A stretch of 64,000 nucleotides of DNA, from NCBI GenBank assembly GCA_035416665.1, contig DAOLNQ010000003.1, forward strand, positions 7,475 through 71,474, given 5' to 3'. Both the position numbers and the translations under genes were made by a program. A model generated the notes under the pieces. That model saw nothing but the letters and a program-made list of their open reading frames with translations, made no database searches and was not told where the DNA came from. The DNA is from Candidatus Saccharicenans sp. GTDB lineage: Bacteria > Acidobacteriota > Aminicenantia > Aminicenantales > Saccharicenantaceae. Every line of letters begins with the position of its first letter. Within the stretch, counting starts at the first letter, position 1. Below are positions 2,348-35,988 of the stretch, in pieces.

Positions 2348-4666
2348 ATGGAAAAAAATAATTCAGTGCGGGCGAGAAGAATTCTGGAAAGAGCAGAGAG
2401 TGAGGGTAGAAATTTTCTGCTGGAACCTGAGGTCTATGCGCTCTTAAAGCTTTTTGGTTTCAAAGTTCCATCTCATATCTTTTTAAAAAGTGGAGAAAAA
2501 CTCAAAGCTGATGACCTGAAAAAAATTAAAAGTAAAGAGGCGGTGGTCAAGGTTGTTTCGCCTCTTATTCAGCACAAGTCTGACGTGGGTGGTGTAGCCC
2601 TGGTCAAAAATTCCAGGCGCGAGATTGAACTGGCCATAAACGATATGAAGAAGCGGGTGGGTGTGGCCTTTTCTCGCCTGGATAAAAGCCATAAGATTTC
2701 TCCGGCGGAGGTGGAAGAATCAATCCGCGGATTTTTAATTGTCGAGCGTGTGAATTATCTTCAGGTTGGCTTCGGCTCAGAGATACTTCTCGGCCTCAGG
2801 ACAAGCAATGACTTTGGCCCGGTCATTACCTTTGGCGGTGGTGGACTGGATGTTGAATATTTAAATGCTCATTTTAAAACTGGCCATAATCTGGCTATTT
2901 TACCTTCCTCGCCGCTGCCGGCAACAGTGATGAAAGCCATCCTGGCCAGGACGGCCATTTATGGCAAAATAGCCGAAGAATTCCGGGGACAAAAACCTCT
3001 TCTCCAACCTGAAAAACTTCTGGAAGCAATCAAGATATTTCAGATTATCGGACAGAGTTTTTCTCTTTTCAATCAGAAGGAAACCTATACGATTGAAGAG
3101 CTCGAAACCAATCCGCTGGTTATGGCTGACGGTAACCTTTTACCGCTCGATGGTCTGTGCCGTTTTTCCAGACGTAAAATAGAACTGACGGTCAGGCCGG
3201 CCGAGCAGATTAAAAAGCTCCTCGAGCCTCAGACGATCGCCATTATCGGCGTTTCGGAGAAGATGAATACAGGCCATATTATTCTGAACAATATTCTGAA
3301 GAATGGTTTCCCGGCGGAAAATATCTATGTGGTCAAACCAGGAGTTCAAATGATCGAAGGCTGCCGCTGTGTGCCGAGTGTGGCTGAGCTGCCGGTGACG
3401 GTGGATCTTTTTATCCATTCGCTGGGAGCGGAACAGGTTTATCCGGTGATGAAAGACCTGGTTGAGCATGAGAAGGCTTATTCAGTGATTGTCATTGCCG
3501 GCGGCCTGGGTGAAAAAGCAGGAACTGAAGGCCTGGAAGCCAGCCTGAGAAATCTCTTAAAAGAAAAAAGGCAGGAAGGGAAAATTGTTCCGGTTGTTAA
3601 TGGCGGGAATTGCCTGGGCGTTATTTCCAAACCGGGAAGATATGACAGCATTTTTATTCCGGACTACAAACTCAAAAGACCGCAGGGTGTCAAAGCAGGC
3701 CTGGCCATGGTCAGCCAGAGCGGCGCCTTTATGCTGTCCAGGATGAGCAATGAAGGACGTCTTGAACCGGTCTATTCAATTTCTATCGGCAATCAGCTGG
3801 ATCTGACCGCGGGCGATTATCTGCAGTATCTTCAGGGCCGCCCGGAAGTAAAAATCATCGCCCTGTACCTGGAAGGTCTTCAGCCTGGAGATGGCTTGAA
3901 TCTTCTCGACGCCGCGAAAAAGTGTCTTGCCGCGGGCCAGAAAATTGTGGTCTATAAAGCCGGACGCAGTCCGGAAGGACGTAAAGCGACCTCGAGTCAT
4001 ACAGCTTCAGTGGCCGGCGACTATGCGGTGGCTTCGACCTTGATGTCTCAAGCCGGAATGATTGTCGCCGAAACCATTGATGAGTTTGAAAGCCTGATCA
4101 AGGGCCTGGCTTATCTGGCTGATAAGAAAGTGAACGGGAATCGAGTTGGTCTTATGACCAATGCCGGCTTTGAGTCAGTGATCATGGCCGATAGTCTCCG
4201 GGGAGAAAATGGCGAGCTGGTGCTGGCTGAATTTTCCGTGGAAACCGTCAGGAAGATAAATCAGGCCCTGGCGCCAGCTGGTATTGACCGCCTGCAGGAT
4301 GTCCATAATCCTCTGGACGTGACACCGATGGCCGATGATGCCACTTTCGGAGCCTGTGTCGAAGCTCTGCTCGAAGAAAAGAATGTTGACTGTGCCGTAG
4401 TCTCAATTGTTCCTGTAACGGCTGCTCTTCAAACTTTACCGCCAGGTGAAGGCCATGCAGAAAATATCTATGCCGAAAATAGTTTGGCCGGTTATCTCCT
4501 CAGAGCCTTCGAGAAGACAGATAAGCCGCTCATAATCAATATTGATGCCGGTGAGCTCTATGATCCGCTGGCCGCTTATCTCGAAGATCATGGACTGCCG
4601 GTTTTCCGTCGCTGCGATCGAGCGGTGAGCTTTTTAAGAAGATTTGTAGCCGTACAAAAAGGCTGA
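2348..4666 (+). CDS. ADP-forming acyl-CoA synthetase with fused ATP-grasp and CoA-binding/ligase domains (acetate--CoA ligase family)
   Basis: The ORF runs from 2303. A GAGG RBS favours the ATG at 2348 (MEKNNS); 2333 is an alternative. The N-terminal ATP-grasp region (LLEPEVYALLKLFGFKVP) is followed by a CoA-binding Rossmann segment (IAIIGVSEKMNTGHIILNNI) and a succinyl-CoA-synthetase-like region. It lies in an operon with iorAB. Confidence 0.75.
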   Translation: MEKNNSVRARRILERAESEGRNFLLEPEVYALLKLFGFKVPSHIFLKSGEKLKADDLKKIKSKEAVVKVVSPLIQHKSDVGGVALVKNSRREIELAINDMKKRVGVAFSRLDKSHKISPAEVEESIRGFLIVERVNYLQVGFGSEILLGLRTSNDFGPVITFGGGGLDVEYLNAHFKTGHNLAILPSSPLPATVMKAILARTAIYGKIAEEFRGQKPLLQPEKLLEAIKIFQIIGQSFSLFNQKETYTIEELETNPLVMADGNLLPLDGLCRFSRRKIELTVRPAEQIKKLLEPQTIAIIGVSEKMNTGHIILNNILKNGFPAENIYVVKPGVQMIEGCRCVPSVAELPVTVDLFIHSLGAEQVYPVMKDLVEHEKAYSVIVIAGGLGEKAGTEGLEASLRNLLKEKRQEGKIVPVVNGGNCLGVISKPGRYDSIFIPDYKLKRPQGVKAGLAMVSQSGAFMLSRMSNEGRLEPVYSISIGNQLDLTAGDYLQYLQGRPEVKIIALYLEGLQPGDGLNLLDAAKKCLAAGQKIVVYKAGRSPEGRKATSSHTASVAGDYAVASTLMSQAGMIVAETIDEFESLIKGLAYLADKKVNGNRVGLMTNAGFESVIMADSLRGENGELVLAEFSVETVRKINQALAPAGIDRLQDVHNPLDVTPMADDATFGACVEALLEEKNVDCAVVSIVPVTAALQTLPPGEGHAENIYAENSLAGYLLRAFEKTDKPLIINIDAGELYDPLAAYLEDHGLPVFRRCDRAVSFLRRFVAVQKG

Positions 4667-4729
4667 AAAGGTGCCAGGTAGTTTATAAACACCCTTGAAA
4701 GGCTGGACTCGGAAAAGGTAGGGCGAACA

Positions 4730-5356
4730 ATGGAACCAGAGAACAGGGAAGAGGGCAGTCAGGTTCTGTCTAAAATAGCCAGAAGAAAGGAACTTCAGGC
4801 ACAATATGGATATGACCTTGACCGGGAAAGATTGGCTGTGATCGAAGCGGCCAGGCCACTTGCTGGCCGGATGCTTGAAGCCGGAACAGGTCGAGGGCAT
4901 TTAGCCCTCAATCTGGCCAGGCTAGGCTACCGGCTGGTGAGTTTTGATCAATCAGCTGAGCAGCTGGAGTTTGCCCGTCAGAACCTCGAAGCCCATGGTC
5001 TGGCCGGGCTGGTGGAGCTCAGGCAAGAAGATGGAGAAAAGCTGTCTTTGGCGGATGATTCCTTTGATATCATTTTTGCGGTTAATTTAGTTCATCATTT
5101 AAAAAACCCTTATCGTGTCCTGGATGAACTCCAGCGCGTGCTGGCTCCCTCCGGCCGGCTGGTCATAAGTGATTTTAATGAACGCGGTCTCGCCATGATG
5201 GCTGAAATTCATCGCCTGGAGGGAGATGAACATGAAGTTTCCGGCGTCAGTCTGGAGGCAGTTGAGGCCTATTTGCAGGCTAAAGGAATGAATATAAAAA
5301 AGAGCTCGACTGATTTTGAGCTTATCCTGGTCGCCAGCAGCCCGGGTAAACTTTAA
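4730..5356 (+). CDS. class I SAM-dependent methyltransferase
   Basis: 208 aa. A SAM-binding motif I is present (LEAGTGRGHLALNLARLGYRLVSFD), followed by an acidic post-I residue and the FAVNLVHH motif. Confidence 0.7.
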   Translation: MEPENREEGSQVLSKIARRKELQAQYGYDLDRERLAVIEAARPLAGRMLEAGTGRGHLALNLARLGYRLVSFDQSAEQLEFARQNLEAHGLAGLVELRQEDGEKLSLADDSFDIIFAVNLVHHLKNPYRVLDELQRVLAPSGRLVISDFNERGLAMMAEIHRLEGDEHEVSGVSLEAVEAYLQAKGMNIKKSSTDFELILVASSPGKL

Positions 5357-5447
5357 TTGCAATGTTTTTGCCTGCTAGATATTTGACGGTACATTTAACG
5401 ACATTTTTTAAAATAGATTTCAGATTAAATCGGCCGTGGAGGAAAAA

Positions 5448-7382
5448 ATGAAGAATAATTTCAAATCAGGTCGGGGAAAAAGCTGGAAGGAAAGATTGTC
5501 TGTGACGCTTGGTCTCTTGCTGGTAGGGGTGTTCTTTTTGAACTCGCTGCTTCTGGCCGGAGCAGAGAAGAGTGGCGAAGAAAGGCGCTTCGGATCGGGC
5601 CGCATCGACTTAAATCTTTCTGTCCCATCTCAGGCTTCGGCCGAAAGTTTATCTCTCCCTCGACCGGAATATCCACGTCCTGATTTCACTCGCTCAAGCT
5701 GGCTCAATTTAAACGGCGAGTGGGATTTTACCTTTGATTTATCTGATTCAGGCGAAGAACGGGGGCTGCCGCAGGGAGAAGGATTTGATCGGAAAATTCT
5801 TGTTCCTTTTGCGCCGGAAAGTAAACTCTCCGGAATTGGCTTTACCGATTTCATGGCTGCTGTCTGGTATAAAAAACTGCTGACCATTCCCGAGGGGTGG
5901 CAGGGACAGAGAATCAAGTTAAATTTTGAAGCAGCTGATTATGAAACAACTGTCTGGATTAACGGACAGAAAGCTGGAACTCACCGTGGCGGTTATACTC
6001 CCTTTTCCTTTGATATTACTGACCTCTGTCAGCAGAAGGAGAATGTCCTGGTTGTCAGATGCCGGGATGATGTCCGCAGCGGGCGTCAGCCGTCCGGCAA
6101 ACAGAGTGAGCGTTATTATTCTTATGGTTGCATGTACCGGCGGACAACAGGTATCTGGCAGACAGTCTGGCTGGAGCCGGTCCCGGCGGTGAGAATAGAA
6201 AAATACCGCGTTTATCCTGACCTCCGGAACGGGCAGGCTGTCCTCCAGGTTTATCTCAATGAGGAGCCGGTCAGCGGCTTTCTGACCCTGGCTGTGGCCG
6301 ATGGTCAGAAAATCGTTTTTAAAGAAACAAGACCGGCGGCGCGACTAACCGGCTTTGTGGTCAGATTGAAGAATCCAAAACTCTGGAACATCAGAAACCC
6401 TTATCTTTATGATTTTACTCTGGAATTGAGCACCGCTGCTTCTGGCCCGGCTGTAGATAGCGTCCAGGGCTACTTCGGTCTTAGAAAGATAGAAGCGCGC
6501 GGCGAGAAAATTTATTTTAATAAAAAGCCACTTTTTATGCGCCTTGTTCTCGATCAGGGATTTTATCCCGATGGAATATATACTGCTCCCTCTGATGAAG
6601 CGCTGCGCCATGATATAGAAATTTCTCAGGCGGCGGGGTTCGATGGGGCGAGATTGCATCAGCGGGTTTTTGAGCGGCGTTTTCTCTACTGGGCCGACCG
6701 CCTGGGCTATCTCGTCTGGGGAGAATTTGCCGACTGGGGACTCGATTTAAGCCGCCCTGAAGCTCTCATTACTTTTCAGTCTGAGTGGCTGGAAGCAGTC
6801 GAACGAGATTTCAACCATCCGTCCATCATCGGCTGGTGCCCCTTTAATGAACGCTGGGGTGATAACTTTCCCGGTGTGATGGAGAGTATCTTCCATCTGA
6901 CTAAAGCTCTCGATCCAACGCGACTTATGATCGATGCTTCTGGCGGCTATCATCTGGTCATACCGGATGTTTATGATTCTCACAATTATGAACAGAATGT
7001 GGCTAAGTTTAAAGAAGCCTACGATGGCCTTCTTCTTTCGCCACCTAAGGTTTTCGTCAATGGCAGTAGAGAACGGCATACTCCTTATCAGGGGCAGCCC
7101 TATTTCGTGAGCGAATATGGCGGAATCTGGTGGAACCCTGGACAGCAGGATGATAAAGCCTGGGGCTATGGTGACCGGCCCAGGAGTTCGGAAGAATTTC
7201 TGGAACGCTATAAGGCTTTAACCGAAGTTCTGCTCTTTAACAGGCGAATAGCCGGCTTTTGCTATACCCAGCTCTATGATATCGAACAGGAAGTCAATGG
7301 CCTTTATACTTTTGAACGACAGCCGAAATTTGACCCGGCTTTCTTCTTCAAAGTTAATCAGCAAAAAGCAGCCATCGAATAG
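5448..7382 (+). CDS. glycoside hydrolase family 2 protein (beta-galactosidase/beta-mannosidase-like), secreted
   Basis: The ORF runs from GTG 5436. The ATG at 5448 lies 5 nt after a GGAGG RBS. An N-terminal signal/TM segment is present. The GH2 sugar-binding, Ig-like and TIM-barrel architecture is recognisable (WQTVWLEPVP, NHPSIIGWCPFNE). Confidence 0.75.
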   Translation: MKNNFKSGRGKSWKERLSVTLGLLLVGVFFLNSLLLAGAEKSGEERRFGSGRIDLNLSVPSQASAESLSLPRPEYPRPDFTRSSWLNLNGEWDFTFDLSDSGEERGLPQGEGFDRKILVPFAPESKLSGIGFTDFMAAVWYKKLLTIPEGWQGQRIKLNFEAADYETTVWINGQKAGTHRGGYTPFSFDITDLCQQKENVLVVRCRDDVRSGRQPSGKQSERYYSYGCMYRRTTGIWQTVWLEPVPAVRIEKYRVYPDLRNGQAVLQVYLNEEPVSGFLTLAVADGQKIVFKETRPAARLTGFVVRLKNPKLWNIRNPYLYDFTLELSTAASGPAVDSVQGYFGLRKIEARGEKIYFNKKPLFMRLVLDQGFYPDGIYTAPSDEALRHDIEISQAAGFDGARLHQRVFERRFLYWADRLGYLVWGEFADWGLDLSRPEALITFQSEWLEAVERDFNHPSIIGWCPFNERWGDNFPGVMESIFHLTKALDPTRLMIDASGGYHLVIPDVYDSHNYEQNVAKFKEAYDGLLLSPPKVFVNGSRERHTPYQGQPYFVSEYGGIWWNPGQQDDKAWGYGDRPRSSEEFLERYKALTEVLLFNRRIAGFCYTQLYDIEQEVNGLYTFERQPKFDPAFFFKVNQQKAAIE

Positions 7383-28571: not shown

Positions 28572-29678
28572 ATGGGAAAAAGAGTAATAGGTGTATGCAT
28601 TTTTATTATATTTATAGCAAGTTCTCTATCTGCCCTGGAAATAACTTATGAAGGGAAAGTTCAGCTTGTTCAGAAAGAAGGCTTTTTTATTGGATTTCCT
28701 CGTGGTTTTGTCGTTACCGAAGACGATTTTATTGTCGTCTGTGATATCCGGGCTTCGGATTTTAAGATCTTTAATCAGGAAGGCAAGGCACTCAGTGTTT
28801 TTGGCCGGAAAGGCTATGGGCCAGATGAATTTGCCGACCCCTGGCTTCACGATTATAAAAATGGGAAATTGCTCATTTCAGATACCAGCACCAAGAAATT
28901 GTATATTTATAGTGTTGATAAAGACTTAAAATTTCAGCAGACTAAGCAGACAATTGTAACTTCAGTTATGGACGCAAAATTGATAGATGAAAAGGATATG
29001 GTTTTAATAGCCAGAATGCCTATTAAAGATAGTCCTTCTCCTACTGCTTACGTCCTCTTTGTTCTGGATATTACGAGAGGCAGCCGTGATCATCTTGTAC
29101 CCTTTGAGCTTCAACTGGGGGAAAATGAAAAGCCGGTGGATTTTGATAAACTTAAAAAAACGAATCCCTCGGATTTTCCCGATTGGATGATCTTACCCCC
29201 GTGGAAGTACTGTGACTACTCTGGAGATAACGTTTATTTCGTCTGGGCGGCTAACCTGGATATCATCAAAATTGACCTGACTACCAAAGCCCACACCAGA
29301 TTTTCGCGCAAGACCGAAAAATATATCCAGCCTAAAGTCTCTCGTGAATTTAAAAAAGCTTATAATGAACATAATTCAAAAGAATATAGGGGTTGGGTTC
29401 AAAAGATGTCCTGGGTATGTAAGGTCTTTGCGGATTCAGACATGGTGGGGATCGTTTATACCAATTTTGACAACAAAACTTCAAGGTGGAACTCTTTTCT
29501 CCAGATATATGATCACAATGGAACCTTTCTCAAAGAAGCCCCTTTAGAAAATTTCAGTAGTACTTCTGAGCGGCCTAATCTCTATTATGATAGGAACAAA
29601 AAAATACTTTACTGCCTCTCTGAAGAGTCGATAGGCACTGAAGGTGTTTATACGGTCTATAAGTACAGGCTGAGATGA
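28572..29678 (+). CDS. secreted NHL-repeat six-bladed beta-propeller protein, paralogue 2
   Basis: 368 aa. The signal peptide is MGKRVIGVCIFIIFIASSLSA. An NHL-like repeat signature is present (GRKGYGPDEFADPW), and the hydrophobic/Gly periodicity fits propeller blades. There is a 213-bp tract identical to paralogue 1. Confidence 0.7.
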   Translation: MGKRVIGVCIFIIFIASSLSALEITYEGKVQLVQKEGFFIGFPRGFVVTEDDFIVVCDIRASDFKIFNQEGKALSVFGRKGYGPDEFADPWLHDYKNGKLLISDTSTKKLYIYSVDKDLKFQQTKQTIVTSVMDAKLIDEKDMVLIARMPIKDSPSPTAYVLFVLDITRGSRDHLVPFELQLGENEKPVDFDKLKKTNPSDFPDWMILPPWKYCDYSGDNVYFVWAANLDIIKIDLTTKAHTRFSRKTEKYIQPKVSREFKKAYNEHNSKEYRGWVQKMSWVCKVFADSDMVGIVYTNFDNKTSRWNSFLQIYDHNGTFLKEAPLENFSSTSERPNLYYDRNKKILYCLSEESIGTEGVYTVYKYRLR

Positions 29679-31286: not shown

Positions 31287-31976
31287 ATGTTTTATTTTGA
31301 TTACACGATCTGGCTGCTGATACCAGTTTTTATTTTTGCTATTTATGCCCAGAACAAGGTTAAATCGACCTTTTCCCGATTCAGCCAGGTTGTCTCTTCT
31401 TCGAGACTGACCGCGGCCGAGGCGGTTGGTGAAATTTTAAAATACAGCCCGGCTAATGGAGTCAGGATAGAAAAAACCAGGGGCCATTTGACTGACCATT
31501 ATGATCCGAAGGCCAAAGTACTTCGGTTATCTGAAGATGTTTATGATAGTTCGTCGATCGCCGCTCTGGGTGTAGCTGCTCACGAAGCCGGTCATGCTAT
31601 CCAGCATGCTCAGGGCTATGCTTTCCTGGCTTTGAGGAATATTATTTACCCGGTGGCCAGTCTTGGCTCGAATCTGGCTTTTCCACTTTTTTTCATCGGT
31701 CTGCTGTTTAGCGGGCATGGTCCAAGTGTCCTGATGGATATTGGTATTCTGCTTTTCAGTGCAGCGGTTCTTTTTACCGTCGTCACTCTGCCTGTTGAAT
31801 TTAACGCTTCCCACCGGGCGCTGGTTATACTTCAGGAGCGAGGTTTTCTGAATGCCAAGGAGATTGATGGAGCAAGGAGCGTGCTGAAAGCGGCGGCTAT
31901 GACTTATGTAGCTTCAACCGCCATGGCCGCTATCCAGCTGCTGCGGATGATTCTCATCCGGAATTCTCGCGATTAA
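31287..31976 (+). CDS. membrane zinc metallopeptidase (Zn_peptidase_2 / putative neutral zinc metallopeptidase family)
   Basis: 229 aa. An N-terminal TM helix is followed by an HExxH zinc site (AAHEAGHAIQH) and C-terminal TM helices. Confidence 0.7.
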   Translation: MFYFDYTIWLLIPVFIFAIYAQNKVKSTFSRFSQVVSSSRLTAAEAVGEILKYSPANGVRIEKTRGHLTDHYDPKAKVLRLSEDVYDSSSIAALGVAAHEAGHAIQHAQGYAFLALRNIIYPVASLGSNLAFPLFFIGLLFSGHGPSVLMDIGILLFSAAVLFTVVTLPVEFNASHRALVILQERGFLNAKEIDGARSVLKAAAMTYVASTAMAAIQLLRMILIRNSRD

Positions 31977-32450
31977 TGGGGTCGGGCCAGCGGATTCCTT
32001 TTATTATCAATAATATAACAAATATAAGGTCAGTAATCTAAGTCTAATAACCTGAGGACCCTTTATTAACGGCTCATAAATATCATGGCCGTATTTTTCA
32101 ATTCGTTCATTTTTTATTGCTTTACTTCCGTCGATTTGCTTGGGCTTTAACAATTAGTCTTTTTATATTTCTTCTTCTTCTTAGATGCTACAAATGTTTT
32201 TTCGTGTCTCTTGCCTTCACTCTACAATTGAGAGCTGAGGGCTTAGAGCAGGAGCCGGAGCTTGGGCTGTCGGGTCGGGTTAACCTGCAGAAAATAGCGT
32301 TTTACAGATTTTCTGGCTTTTCCTATCAGTGTAAAAACCTAAATAAATTGATCAGAACATTAACCATAAGTCTGGTTCTGATGTTATAGCATTCTAAGAG
32401 AGCTTGATAACAGATTGATAATAAAAGAAATCGGCTGGCCCGACCCCATT
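31975..32450. mobile_element. MITE-like non-autonomous element bounded by 22-bp terminal inverted repeats
   Basis: The left inverted repeat aatggggtcgggccagcggatt (31975-31996) matches the right one aatcggctggcccgaccccatt (32429-32450) at 21 of 22 positions. The two flank about 430 bp of AT-rich sequence with no convincing ORF. The element lies in the gap between two peptidase genes. Confidence 0.4.
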
Positions 32451-32510
32451 TTGATTGACTTGCCACGGCCAGAATAGTAATAAGATATTAATTCGCAGTT
32501 AGGAGGAGTC

Positions 32511-35129
32511 ATGTTAGATAAAAAATTTTGCGGCTTAAAACCAGTCATATTTATAGTTTTATCACTGGTCATTTTTGTTTTCCCATATTTTCTTTCAGCT
32601 CAGACGCCGCCTGATAAATTTCTGGGTTTCAGAGTTGGCGAGGATAGAAAACTCGCTGATTACAATCAGATTAAAGCCTACTTTGAGCTGCTGGACAAAG
32701 AGTCTTCACAGTTCACTGTTCTTAATATTGGCCAGACTACCCTGGGCAAAGACATGATCATGGCTGTTATTTCCAGTGAAGATAATTTAAAAAACGTCGA
32801 TCGCTACCGTGAAATTGCGCGGCGCTTGAAGGAAGCCAGAGGTCTAACACCCGAACAGGCCCGGCAGCTGGCCCGGGAAGGTAAGGCCATTTTGCTTATT
32901 ACCTGCAACATCCATTCGACCGAAATAGCTGCCTCTCAAATGGCGATGGAGCTGGCTTATGACCTTATCACCGGTACGGCCTTTTTCGATATGAAGCAAG
33001 CTCTCAATGACGTTATTGTTCTTCTCTGTCCTTCCATCAACCCTGATGGCCAGCAGATGGTTGTCGATTGGTATCGTAAGTATCTCGGAACTGAGTATGA
33101 AGGCAGCAATATGCCCTGGCTTTACCATCATTATGCCGGCCATGATGACAATCGCGATTTCTTCATGCTGAATCTGGCCGAAACCAGGGCGGTCACCCGT
33201 GTGCTCTACCATGAGTGGTTTCCTCAGATTCATATAGATGAACATCAGATGGGTTCTAATGGGGCCAGAATCTTTGTTCCACCCTTTATGGATCCACCTC
33301 TGCCCAATATCCAGCCCTTGCTCTGGCGGAGCGTCAATCTCTGCGGTGTTAATATGGCCTATGATTTGCAGAAACATGGCTATAAAGGTGTGGTTAATGG
33401 CCGGAGCTACACCGGCTGGTGGATTGGTTCCTGTGATGATACTTCCTGGCTGCATAATGTAGTCGGCCTGCTGAGTGAGGCGGCTTCGGTCAGAGTAGCA
33501 ACGCCAATTTACATTGAACCAACAGAAGTTTCAAAAGACTATTATGAAAAAAGAATGGATTTTCTTGATCCCTGGCCAGGTGGCTGGTGGCGTCTGCGTG
33601 ATATAGTTGACTATGAGCTGCTTCTATCGAAAAGCCTGGTCAAGACAGCCTGGCTGAACAAAGAGGATTTTCTTTATAACTCCTATTTGATGTCAAAGCA
33701 GAGTATCGAGGTTAAAGACCGCAATCAACCCTATGCCTTTGTCATCACTAAAGACCAACCGGACTATCTCACCACCCTCAAGATGATTGAAATTCTGCAG
33801 CTGGGTGGAGTAGAAGTGCATCAGGCCACCAGGGATTTTATTGCCGATGGCAGGTTTTATCCGGCCGGTTCTTTTGTTGTTCTGGTTGCCCAGCCCAATA
33901 AAGCTTATACCTGGGCGCTTCTGGAAAGACAAAAATATCCTGATCTGCGCCAGTATCCGGGAGGTCCACCCGTTCCCCCTTATGACAATGCTGCCTGGAC
34001 GCTGCCTCTTCAGATGGGTGTCCGCTGTGATCAGATTGATAAACCTTTTGAGGCGGCACTGAATAAAGTGGATAGAGTTCAATATCCTGAAGCCAATATA
34101 CCTGATTCAGCTTACCTGGCCCTCGATCCCAGGCTTAATGCTTCTTACGCCGTAGCTTTTGGTCTTCTTAAGAATAAAGCCGAAATGTGGCGGGCAAAAA
34201 ATGGAATTAAAGTGGGACAGGCAGAGTTACCAGCTGGAGCTTTCTTAATCAAAAATTCGCCGGCTGTCACTCAGACTCTCTCCGGGCTACTGGAAAAGTG
34301 GCCAGTTTCAATTGAATCTGTTGCCGATATATCTTCTATTGATAGGGCCTCCATTAAATTTCCCAGACTTGCTATTTACCAGTCGTGGCGCGGTAATGCC
34401 GATGAAGGCTGGACGCGTTATATGCTCGATGATTTAGGCTTCACCTATACTGTCCTCCATAATCAGGATTTTAAGGGGACCAGGGCCAAAAAAGTCGATC
34501 TCAAGGCGAGCTTCGATGTCATTATTCTGGCCAGCGAGAATCCGGAAATTATTAAAACCGGTCGCTTTCAGCGTCCAGGGCAATCGGCCCGGTTTTTTAT
34601 GAGTCAAATGCCGCCCGAATACGAAGGAGGCATCGGGCAGGAGGGAGTTGATGCCCTGAAAGCTTTCGTCGAGGCCGGCGGAATACTGGTCACTCTTAAT
34701 CAGGCCAGCGAACTGGCCATGAGTGAGCTGGGCGCTCCGGCCAGAAATTCGCTGAGTGGTGTTGACCGCAACAAATTTTTCTGCCCAGTCTCTATTCTGA
34801 GGCTCAAAGTCGATAATACCACGCCGCTTGGCTATGGGCTAAGCGAAGAAGCAGCGGCTCTTTTCAATCAGAGTCTGGCTCTTGACACCTGGGCACCGAC
34901 TTCTTCCAGGATGAATAGAAAAGTCGTGGCTTTTTATCCTGAAGATAATATTTTGCTGAGTGGCTGGCTGCTGGGTGAAGACTATCTTAGCCGGAAAGCA
35001 GCTGTGGTGGATGTTAAAAGCGGCAACGGGCATATCGCTCTTATTGGCTTCAGGGCCCAACACCGGGCTCAATCTCACGGCACCTATAAGTTTGTGCTGA
35101 ATGCCATCTTTTACCCGGAAGGGATGTAA
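32511..35129 (+). CDS. M14-family zinc carboxypeptidase, large secreted multidomain protein
   Basis: 872 aa. A signal peptide is present. The M14 zinc ligands and motifs are recognisable (ITCNIHSTEIAASQMAMEL...HHYAGHDDNRDF...HIDEHQMG). A long C-terminal extension follows. Confidence 0.8.
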   Translation: MLDKKFCGLKPVIFIVLSLVIFVFPYFLSAQTPPDKFLGFRVGEDRKLADYNQIKAYFELLDKESSQFTVLNIGQTTLGKDMIMAVISSEDNLKNVDRYREIARRLKEARGLTPEQARQLAREGKAILLITCNIHSTEIAASQMAMELAYDLITGTAFFDMKQALNDVIVLLCPSINPDGQQMVVDWYRKYLGTEYEGSNMPWLYHHYAGHDDNRDFFMLNLAETRAVTRVLYHEWFPQIHIDEHQMGSNGARIFVPPFMDPPLPNIQPLLWRSVNLCGVNMAYDLQKHGYKGVVNGRSYTGWWIGSCDDTSWLHNVVGLLSEAASVRVATPIYIEPTEVSKDYYEKRMDFLDPWPGGWWRLRDIVDYELLLSKSLVKTAWLNKEDFLYNSYLMSKQSIEVKDRNQPYAFVITKDQPDYLTTLKMIEILQLGGVEVHQATRDFIADGRFYPAGSFVVLVAQPNKAYTWALLERQKYPDLRQYPGGPPVPPYDNAAWTLPLQMGVRCDQIDKPFEAALNKVDRVQYPEANIPDSAYLALDPRLNASYAVAFGLLKNKAEMWRAKNGIKVGQAELPAGAFLIKNSPAVTQTLSGLLEKWPVSIESVADISSIDRASIKFPRLAIYQSWRGNADEGWTRYMLDDLGFTYTVLHNQDFKGTRAKKVDLKASFDVIILASENPEIIKTGRFQRPGQSARFFMSQMPPEYEGGIGQEGVDALKAFVEAGGILVTLNQASELAMSELGAPARNSLSGVDRNKFFCPVSILRLKVDNTTPLGYGLSEEAAALFNQSLALDTWAPTSSRMNRKVVAFYPEDNILLSGWLLGEDYLSRKAAVVDVKSGNGHIALIGFRAQHRAQSHGTYKFVLNAIFYPEGM

Positions 35130-35703: not shown

Positions 35704-35988
<285 letters not shown>

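Follow-up and report, generated by a model that had tools for sequence, protein, structure and literature searches.

The transposases of IS200/IS605 elements and the RAYT enzymes act on single-stranded DNA, recognize the termini of their substrates, and leave no target duplication behind. The defining picture of a RAYT system is a single-copy Y1 transposase gene flanked by an abundant extragenic repeat (PMC5581495, PMC3337134). The termini of REP repeats (GTAG) often supply the stop codon of flanking open reading frames (PMC3733652). A variant of this arrangement was described by Di Nocera, De Gregorio, and Rocco in 2013, who reported TIRtrons and TIRYTs, an acidobacterial TIRYT group among them, together with dispersed families of TIRs that occur as singles, dimers, or groups (PMC3733652). 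Some of these TIRs, associated with a subset of TIRYTs, contain the motif GGGGWSAS (PMC3733652). Work on REP/RAYT-type systems has dealt almost wholly with Proteobacteria, and the repeats discussed here provide a clean, well-populated example from uncultured Aminicenantes of anaerobic digesters.

The locus that led to these repeats lies between two peptidase genes in the window, by which we mean the whole 64,000-nucleotide stretch of DNA that was analyzed. Its features are given below by window coordinates.

31287-31976, plus strand: Zn_peptidase_2 gene (PF04298), the upstream gene, whose TAA stop codon (31974-31976) overlaps the left repeat unit
31975-32020, plus strand: left repeat unit of ~45 nt (45.8 bits with the nhmmer unit profile), which contains the inverted-repeat arm 31975-32011
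32021-32403, no strand: interior spacer, locus-specific, non-coding, AT-rich, and not repeated elsewhere (a single flank group, no Rfam match, no covariation)
32404-32450, minus strand: right repeat unit of the same family, inverted (47.1 bits with nhmmer, the hit running from 32404 to 32451), which contains the inverted-repeat arm 32414-32450
32455-32460, plus strand: TTGACT, a conserved -35-like box 4 nt outside the right unit
32511-35129, plus strand: M14 metallocarboxypeptidase gene (PF00246), the downstream gene

The initial annotation of this DNA had drawn attention to a 22-nt inverted repeat at the two ends of a 476-bp segment. A repeat search recovered this repeat and lengthened it: 31975-32011 and 32414-32450 form two arms of 37 nt that are complementary at 35 of 37 positions (95%) and are separated by 402 nt, with the 22-mer making up the outer part of the arm. 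Within the window, the 22-mer has two matches when up to three mismatches are allowed, where 0.00 are expected (none in 100 shuffles). When the full ~45-nt units are considered in place of the 37-nt arms, the interior between them measures 383 nt. Both units carry the sequence AATGGGG at their outward end, to the left in the left unit and to the right in the right unit. The first two A's of the left unit are also the last two bases of the upstream TAA at 31974-31976, which confirms the earlier claim that the left repeat, starting at 31975, begins inside the stop codon of the Zn-peptidase gene. The interior was correctly described as AT-rich (37% GC compared to 46% for the window), and its 90-aa open reading frame (32117-32389) was rightly called spurious because frameshifts or stops interrupt it in each of the four orthologues. 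On the other side of the segment, the end of the right arm is 60 nt from the ATG of the M14 gene. The TTGACT box in this interval is invariant in the window, in four orthologues with units, and in three outgroup loci without units, and it is probably part of the M14 gene promoter. A promoter and terminator scan of the region gave no enrichment over shuffles, and its sole terminator-like match was the right unit itself, on the minus strand. A scan of tRNA and tmRNA genes as possible integration targets returned none. One further claim, that a related palindromic core recurs near 63114-63127, did not survive analysis. The sequence in question is a 14-mer at 63119-63132 with two mismatches to the terminus, which is a chance-level match (by our estimate, 64 kb should contain ~0.4 matches of this quality by chance), and the unit profile detects no unit there.

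The arm sequence was searched for with the pattern AATGGGGTYGGGYCAGCSNAT, a core 21-mer degenerate enough to accommodate all four arms then known. In the species-representative genome collection, this pattern has 86 exact matches at 65 loci, 79 of which are in six Aminicenantes/Acidobacteriota MAGs (26 in UBA1061, 23 in UBA6228, then 12, 11, 5, and 2). The remaining seven matches are singletons in unrelated taxa, which by our estimate is about the number expected by chance. One of these singletons, L078, is binned as Bacillota, yet its flanks are those of Aminicenantes. The same type of scan in metagenomes gave at least 118 stretches, with 80 loci (L079-L158) among the matches listed. The arm sequence is therefore multi-copy, a check that the initial annotation had proposed, with dozens of copies per related genome. 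Each arm in the window is one copy of a ~45-nt unit dispersed through the genomes of Saccharicenans-like Aminicenantes. Alignment of 253 distinct contexts yields the unit consensus AATGGGGTCGGGCCAGCCGATTTyTTTATTATCAATAAGTTAgcaa, which has a sharp outer edge and is lost beyond position ~46. The unit is weakly palindromic, with a 4-bp Watson-Crick stem and additional G-U pairs worth about -7.5 kcal/mol, and 41% of units have an uncompensated G at position 18. No covariation supports the hairpin inside the unit; the 3' half varies and the 5' half is invariant. Additionally, a search of the unit for the GTAG/CGTC tag did not find it, and the unit is therefore not a canonical REP. Variants at positions 18-19 (CG/GG/GC) were considered as possible subfamilies of the Y/Z type known for REPs and were rejected, as they are uncorrelated with gene context.

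The genomic distribution of the unit is also distinctive. Just 19 of 267 distinct units are inside open reading frames of at least 100 aa, so the family is extragenic. When neighboring units called with the unit profile are less than 600 nt apart, 61 of 66 such neighbors have AATGGGG facing outward (the "+ -" arrangement). A scan with the terminal 14-mer counted 128 paired termini, 104 solo termini without a partner inside 1.5 kb, and a further 51 at the edges of contigs. The pairs span from 61 nt to more than 1 kb, and some enclose whole genes: mscL in L043, a 692-aa gene in L014, and a 266-aa gene in L157. At the short end of this range, some family members are 61-nt forms with a 14-bp stem that fit the description of a REPIN. 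Clusters of units occur as well, for example at L075, where seven units are found in 8 kb. Stuttered partial duplications are present at unit termini and are worth specialist attention.

The same units mark the borders of a transposase gene. A unit pair of ~1.29 kb, orthologous in six loci, encloses an open reading frame of 254-270 aa that matches Pfam Y1_Tnp (PF01797) with 32 bits (cutoff of 23) and the NCBIfam model NF047646, "REP-associated tyrosine transposase", with E = 5e-18 over profile positions 2-146 of 146. The score of 65.3 bits misses the NF047646 equivalog cutoff of 80, and the protein is therefore a relative of the curated RAYT model rather than an equivalog. Both characteristic motifs are present, the HUH motif as SNHIHLL and the catalytic Tyr in VYIDLNMVRAG. 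A sequence search of the PDB returned no match at E <= 0.01. In 10 of 10 loci fetched, one unit lies ~250 nt upstream of the gene and another ~190 nt downstream, both with their termini outward, and in 24 of 24 contigs read, its neighborhood is constant (a 666-aa gene, the transposase, an acyl-ACP thioesterase, and a patatin). Across these draft contigs, none of which is a closed genome, the transposase is single-copy at a fixed locus with one flank group and is vertically inherited. Its close homologues (88-98% identity) are confined to the Saccharicenans lineage and form three 90%-identity clusters, with no more above 88% identity. Below this tier, identity drops to ~50% and the search enters a very large family of ~260-aa Y1 transposases, some of which are labeled by their sources as "REP element-mobilizing transposase RayT". 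The nearest named homologues, at ~45% identity, come from Desulfobacterales, Pseudomonadota, and others. Its known carriers are sister lineages and sister samples from the study that yielded the window's own MAG, which is itself a putative carrier. No DDE transposase was found between unit ends, and the Y1/HUH enzyme is the only one that they bound.

Comparison of the locus among relatives provides a view of its history. Exact-protein matches come from metagenomes of the anaerobic-digester type and from the NCBI MAG GCA_035401505.1, and the segment is 100% identical and in the same orientation in seven strain-level contigs. Homologues of the M14 protein assign the source to the Saccharicenans-like Aminicenantes (Acidobacteriota). 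The gene order ACT, Zn-peptidase, spacer, M14 is kept in relatives. Besides the window lineage, four other species-level lineages have both arms and a recognizably homologous interior at the orthologous site, namely UBA6228 (L039), the USCA_maxbin.012 type (L077, L148, L169), the JPMR_maxbin.012 type (L008, L052, L140), and UBA1061 (L055). The interior has the same direction relative to its flanks in all of these orthologues. The window pair has been inherited vertically since before the five species-level lineages split. In more distant relatives, in which the M14 protein has 77-81% identity, both arms are absent from the three outgroup loci and the spacers are nevertheless long (274-503 nt). 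The long spacer must then either predate the arms or be independent of them. Decayed relics of the arms were suspected from the alignment at the borders of outgroup spacers (L009, L010), and this candidate was dismissed after the best unit-profile score came to -0.6 bits, where the 95th percentile of shuffles is 3.5. Over its terminal 17 nt, the left arm shows 100% identity among the five lineages. Conservation is almost as high at the right terminus, where L008 has two substitutions and L039 a tandem duplication of 13 nt. Mean pairwise identity in the same five lineages is 74% for the interior, which contains some conserved blocks, and the flanking coding DNA of the orthologues is 74-89% identical to the window. 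These results indicate that the unit termini are maintained, since they stay nearly invariant while the interior and flanks drift, and such maintenance fits what would be expected of a protein recognition or cleavage site or of recurrent conversion. Complementarity between the arms, which is 35 of 37 positions in the window, decays without compensation to 32, 30, and 25 in three orthologues.

To establish what multiplies, the ends or the segment as a whole, the interiors of all pairs were clustered and their flanks compared. Almost every cluster corresponds to one flank group, that is, to the orthologues of one locus, and the window interior falls in one cluster of 16 sequences from the orthologous locus only. 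What is repeated across the genome is therefore the ~45-nt end and not the 476-bp segment, which taken whole is not an element that is multiplying at present. The suggestion that the segment is a mobile element thus holds in part: the arms are multi-copy terminal repeats derived from a mobile element, but the 476 bp are not a discrete multi-copy MITE. One exception to the clustering result is L075 (UBA1061), which holds three TIR-interior-TIR copies of 272-287 bp with related interiors at three different sites, and whole pairs can therefore be copied. Evidence for movement of lone units comes from a locus that is empty in L186 and occupied by a single unit in L171, L150, L081, and L133, from which we conclude that units are gained singly. 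Next to mscL, L068 has one unit more than L043. Target-site duplications, another check that the initial annotation had put forward, are missing. The window segment is flanked by GCGATT and TTGATT, with no duplication, and among 62 distinct pairs none of at least 3 bp was found beyond chance (0-2 pairs share a flank of a 3-mer or longer).

The position of the left unit at the end of the Zn-peptidase gene is a common one for this family. Units that face a gene 3' end account for 108 of the 267 distinct units, and in 62 of these 108, AATGGGG overlaps the stop codon or adjoins it without a gap (offsets of -2, -1, and 0). The window has the same arrangement, in which a T and the AA of the unit make the TAA stop. 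For solo units with a 3' end on their outer side, the median offset is -1. For units that face a gene 5' end and lie upstream of its start, the distance to the start has a median of 80 nt and varies widely. Liang, Rudd, and Deutscher reportedly dealt in 2015 with REP units that abut stop codons and with ribosome stalling. Read in the sense direction, the unit has the form of a weak hairpin (-7.5 to -9.7 kcal/mol) with a U-rich tract after it, and for this reason the left unit may conceivably have been co-opted to attenuate read-through or to act as a terminator. This idea is weakened by the observation that units near gene 3' ends have hairpins no better than those of other units.

These observations are best accommodated if the window feature is a pair, or dimer, of RAYT/TIRYT-family repeat units that bracket an ordinary resident spacer, and we consider this reading probable. 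We would place about the same trust in the assignment of the repeat system as a whole, which appears to be of the REP/RAYT type, more exactly of its "TIRtron/TIRYT" variant, and native to Saccharicenans-like Aminicenantes. TIRtron/TIRYT is the closest description, given that long TIRs, and not GTAG-tagged palindromes, form the ends. A mechanism for the units can be predicted by homology from known Y1 enzymes. The single-copy Y1 (HUH) transposase gene, at its fixed locus with one unit on each side and AATGGGG outward, would encode an enzyme that recognizes the conserved terminal ~17 nt and cuts them in single-stranded DNA, as the biochemistry of IS200/IS605 and RAYT enzymes suggests. By the same analogy, units and sometimes whole pairs would be pasted elsewhere without target-site duplication. 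The same unit is scattered through extragenic DNA as singles and outward pairs. At the window locus, the pair brackets the resident spacer that separates the Zn-peptidase gene from the M14 gene, with the left unit giving the Zn-peptidase its stop and the right unit ending 4 nt upstream of the conserved -35 box of the probable M14 promoter. The strong bias for outward pairing would have no explanation if units were always inserted singly.

That bias is one of the attractions of a different history for the segment, in which it would be a non-autonomous "mini-TIRtron" (a MITE in the functional sense) that was inserted as one piece, TIR-interior-TIR, in the ancestor of the five lineages, was mobilized in trans by the Y1 enzyme, and has been static since. 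The pairs do copy the end geometry of the transposase locus, the outward-facing bias is strong at 61 of 66, and three whole copies of 272-287 bp at three sites in L075 are what such an element would leave. The presence of both arms in all five ingroup lineages and the absence of both from three outgroup loci are also in keeping with insertion in one step. However, every genome scanned has just one copy of the interior and none yielded a source copy, and units were gained singly elsewhere, as in the L186 comparison and in L068 relative to L043. At least 104 termini stand alone over 1.5 kb, and outgroup spacers of 274-503 nt are already long without the arms. We therefore view a mini-TIRtron as possible but doubtful. 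The initial annotation had favored a classic MITE of the DDE type or the footprint of an IS excision. It is easy to see why, as the segment is small, intergenic, and bounded by terminal inverted repeats that are multi-copy, with an AT-rich, non-coding interior. This reading is now largely refuted and hardly any likelihood attaches to it: there is no target-site duplication, the interior is not repeated, and single 45-nt units occur alone in large numbers. The only enzyme bounded by the ends is Y1/HUH, and the idea of an excision footprint does not fit because this sole transposase is of the RAYT type and no DDE IS is bounded by the repeats.

Two further explanations assign a function to the inverted repeat itself. 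An inverton, in which a site-specific recombinase flips the 402-nt segment and so controls the M14 gene, is suggested by a 37-nt inverted-repeat pair that encloses a few hundred bp directly in front of a gene. Recurrence of this inverted repeat at many loci is also reminiscent of the global invertases of Bacteroides, for which one inverted repeat is shared by many loci. Yet the assembled contigs have one orientation in all seven strain-level contigs and in the orthologues of four other lineages, and a pattern for the flipped junction has 0 matches in the metagenome collection. The conserved -35 box is outside the inverted repeat, there is no promoter enrichment inside it, and the arms have drifted to 25-32 of 37 complementary positions in orthologues. 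An inverton is thus extremely improbable at this locus. The prospects of a structured regulatory RNA clamped by the long-range stem, which had been raised in the initial annotation as the alternative to a mobile element, or of an M14 leader, are similarly slim. A 37-bp stem is thermodynamically strong and the interior does have conserved blocks, but the covariation term from RNAalifold is unfavorable at +3.7, with double changes in 7 of 133 pairs. Changes to the stem in orthologues are uncompensated (C-A) as the arms diverge from 35/37 to 25/37. The probable, conserved M14 promoter lies downstream of the whole segment, and the family to which the arms belong recurs in hundreds of unrelated contexts. 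In Rfam searches, the whole window at gathering thresholds yielded only the SRP RNA, which is elsewhere in the window, and the region at E <= 10 yielded nothing beyond two chance snoRNA matches.

A more speculative proposal has two parts, and we regard it as unlikely. Outward pairs would be general substrates of the Y1 enzyme, such that any DNA they enclose could be mobilized as a single-strand "composite", and a mechanistic link would tie insertion to gene 3' ends, the AA of the unit completing TAA. If both parts were true, the system would shape gene boundaries and intergenic architecture in Aminicenantes and would not be a passive repeat. Candidate cargo enclosed by pairs includes a regulatory spacer, as in the window, and whole host genes such as mscL (L043) and those of 692 aa (L014) and 266 aa (L157).

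The literature searched contained no paper that links Aminicenantes or Saccharicenans with REP, RAYT, or REPIN. What is new here is the host lineage and the sequence of the unit; the kind of system, a repeat family associated with a RAYT or TIRYT, is already known. The family should be useful for studying how repeats spread and persist, given its non-palindromic ends of ~45 nt with an invariant terminal 17 nt next to DNA of ~74% identity, its outward pairs with arbitrary interiors that include whole genes, and its very precise junction with stop codons. There are consequences for annotation as well. The labels MITE, inverton, and RNA gene should be avoided for inverted pairs of this kind, and the stop codon of the Zn-peptidase gene should be recognized as supplied by repeat DNA.

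Bacterial MITEs such as Correia/NEMIS, RUP, and ERIC resemble the window segment in being short, non-coding, TIR-bounded, and intergenic, and in their ability to adjoin promoters and gene ends. However, MITEs are copied as whole elements, generate target-site duplications, and derive from DDE-type IS, whereas here ~45-nt ends are repeated without target-site duplication and the enzyme is Y1. The IS200/IS605 elements share the Y1 HUH fold family (PF01797), the lack of target-site duplications, and probably a single-stranded DNA mechanism. They differ in having no terminal inverted repeats and in being multi-copy as whole elements, whereas here the gene is single-copy and its ends are multiplied. 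The REP/REPIN-RAYT systems are closer, with a single-copy, vertically inherited Y1 gene flanked by inverted copies of the most abundant extragenic repeat and with repeats that persist at orthologous sites across species (Nunvar 2010; Bertels and Rainey 2011, PMC3116915, PMC3337134; Bertels et al. 2017, PMC5581495). A REP is an imperfect palindrome of 20-40 nt with a GTAG/CGTC tag, in contrast to the weakly palindromic unit of ~45 nt without this tag. REPINs have spacers of 34-110 bp and pair along their whole length (PMC3337134), in contrast to the 402-nt non-complementary spacer of the window pair. Complementarity of the window pair stops within the unit and there is no structural covariation, whereas a REPIN is a doublet that forms a hairpin as a whole. 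In terms of overall layout, TIRtrons and TIRYTs provide the nearest match. The unit sequence and the Saccharicenans-like lineage are both absent from the paper that described them (PMC3733652), and pairs in the present family often lie far apart (150-500 nt, and as much as whole genes) and have locus-specific interiors. The terminus here, GGGGTCGG, agrees with the GGGGWSAS motif of some TIRs at 7 of 8 positions, with G for A at position 7. A sharply defined acidobacterial group, with K. versatilis and T. saanensis among its members, is part of the TIRtron description (PMC3733652), and several record names assign Aminicenantes to Acidobacteriota, although our assignment is made by layout. In both cases, a RAYT-like Y1/HUH gene is flanked by long TIRs in place of GTAG REPs, and the TIRs form a moderately abundant dispersed family of singles, dimers, and groups.

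Across the family, 108 units face a gene 3′ end, and 62 of them overlap the stop codon of that gene or lie directly against it, at offsets of -2 to 0; the TAA or TGA stop is often completed by A's of the unit itself. The window's own junction, with the stop codon at 31974-31976, is one case of this overlap. One locus is known both with and without a unit, and there the upstream protein has a C-terminal tail of one length in the empty allele (contig L186) and of another in the occupied alleles (L171, L150, and L133). This suggests that units reshape gene 3′ ends. Target preference and selection are both candidate causes of the junctions.

Directly outside the right unit lies a stretch, window 32455-32506, that is probably the promoter and leader of the M14 gene. 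Its three signals are kept from the window to relatives with just 77% M14 identity:
32455-32460, TTGACT box
about 32475-32483, A/T-rich -10-like stretch
32501-32506, AGGAGG RBS

Immediately beyond many units, the terminus and a few adjoining bases recur as short tandem "stutter" copies. Either the cleavage and joining mechanism or slippage at the terminus could have left these copies as a footprint. Examples from other contigs are as follows:
L039 (UBA6228), about 7016-7042, orthologue of window 32438-32455, GACCCCATTTTGA twice
L100, ACTATTAATGGGGTCGGG twice
L075 (UBA1061), about 1180-1224 and about 4760-4796, for example AATGGGGTCaag / AATGGGGTCGGG
L138, about 743-760
L173, about 3117-3132
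L114, about 375-393

Some outward-facing unit pairs hold whole host genes:
L043 (Go_SlDig_bin_15 genome) 4372-5165 and its counterpart L068 (UBA6228) 4903-5701, mscL-like channel gene
L014 2972-5615, gene for a 692-aa secreted protein
L157 4210-5687, 266-aa gene

Between the left unit and mscL, the UBA6228 contig has an extra unit where the Go_SlDig_bin_15 genome has none. At another locus, L139 has a single unit (4308-4352) in a place that spans 809 nt in five contigs (L195, L177, L131, L099, and L076) with flank identity of up to 100%; either units recombined with loss of the DNA between them, or the repeat was collapsed in assembly. The unit of L078 (JAKPEE010000002.1), labelled Bacillota bacterium JPMR_maxbin.103, has flanks 94-97% identical to the Aminicenantes loci L031 and L130, so this contig is probably mis-binned.

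In the wider neighborhood, the M14 gene is followed at a distance of about 0.6 kb by the bacterial large SRP RNA (window 35709-35975, + strand; a full-length RF01854 match at 160 bits). In the window's species, tandem paralogues of DUF5128 (beta-propeller) type precede the ACT/Zn-peptidase genes, at window 28572-29678 and farther upstream and likewise at L001 1-2392.

In relatives (L008-L013), transketolase and FAD-oxidase genes stand in place of the DUF5128 paralogues, and this swap marks the boundary of a local rearrangement, which lies upstream of the element by about 1.5-3 kb. The outgroup Saccharicenans MAG (L013) has, about 1.5 kb to the downstream side of its M14 gene, an ApeA-like HEPN gene (PF18862/PF18739; 8121-9512), a candidate defense gene that is missing from the window's neighborhood.

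The minimal forms of the family are 61 nt long and consist of one full unit plus the terminal 14-mer alone, inverted:
L061 1072-1132
L138 683-743
L173 3132-3192 and 4005-4065
L191 7861-7921 and 8755-8815

They form a perfect 14-bp stem with a loop of about 33 nt (-28 to -34 kcal/mol as RNA). Of all members of the unit family, these 61-nt forms come closest to REPINs, in which two inverted REPs form a hairpin.
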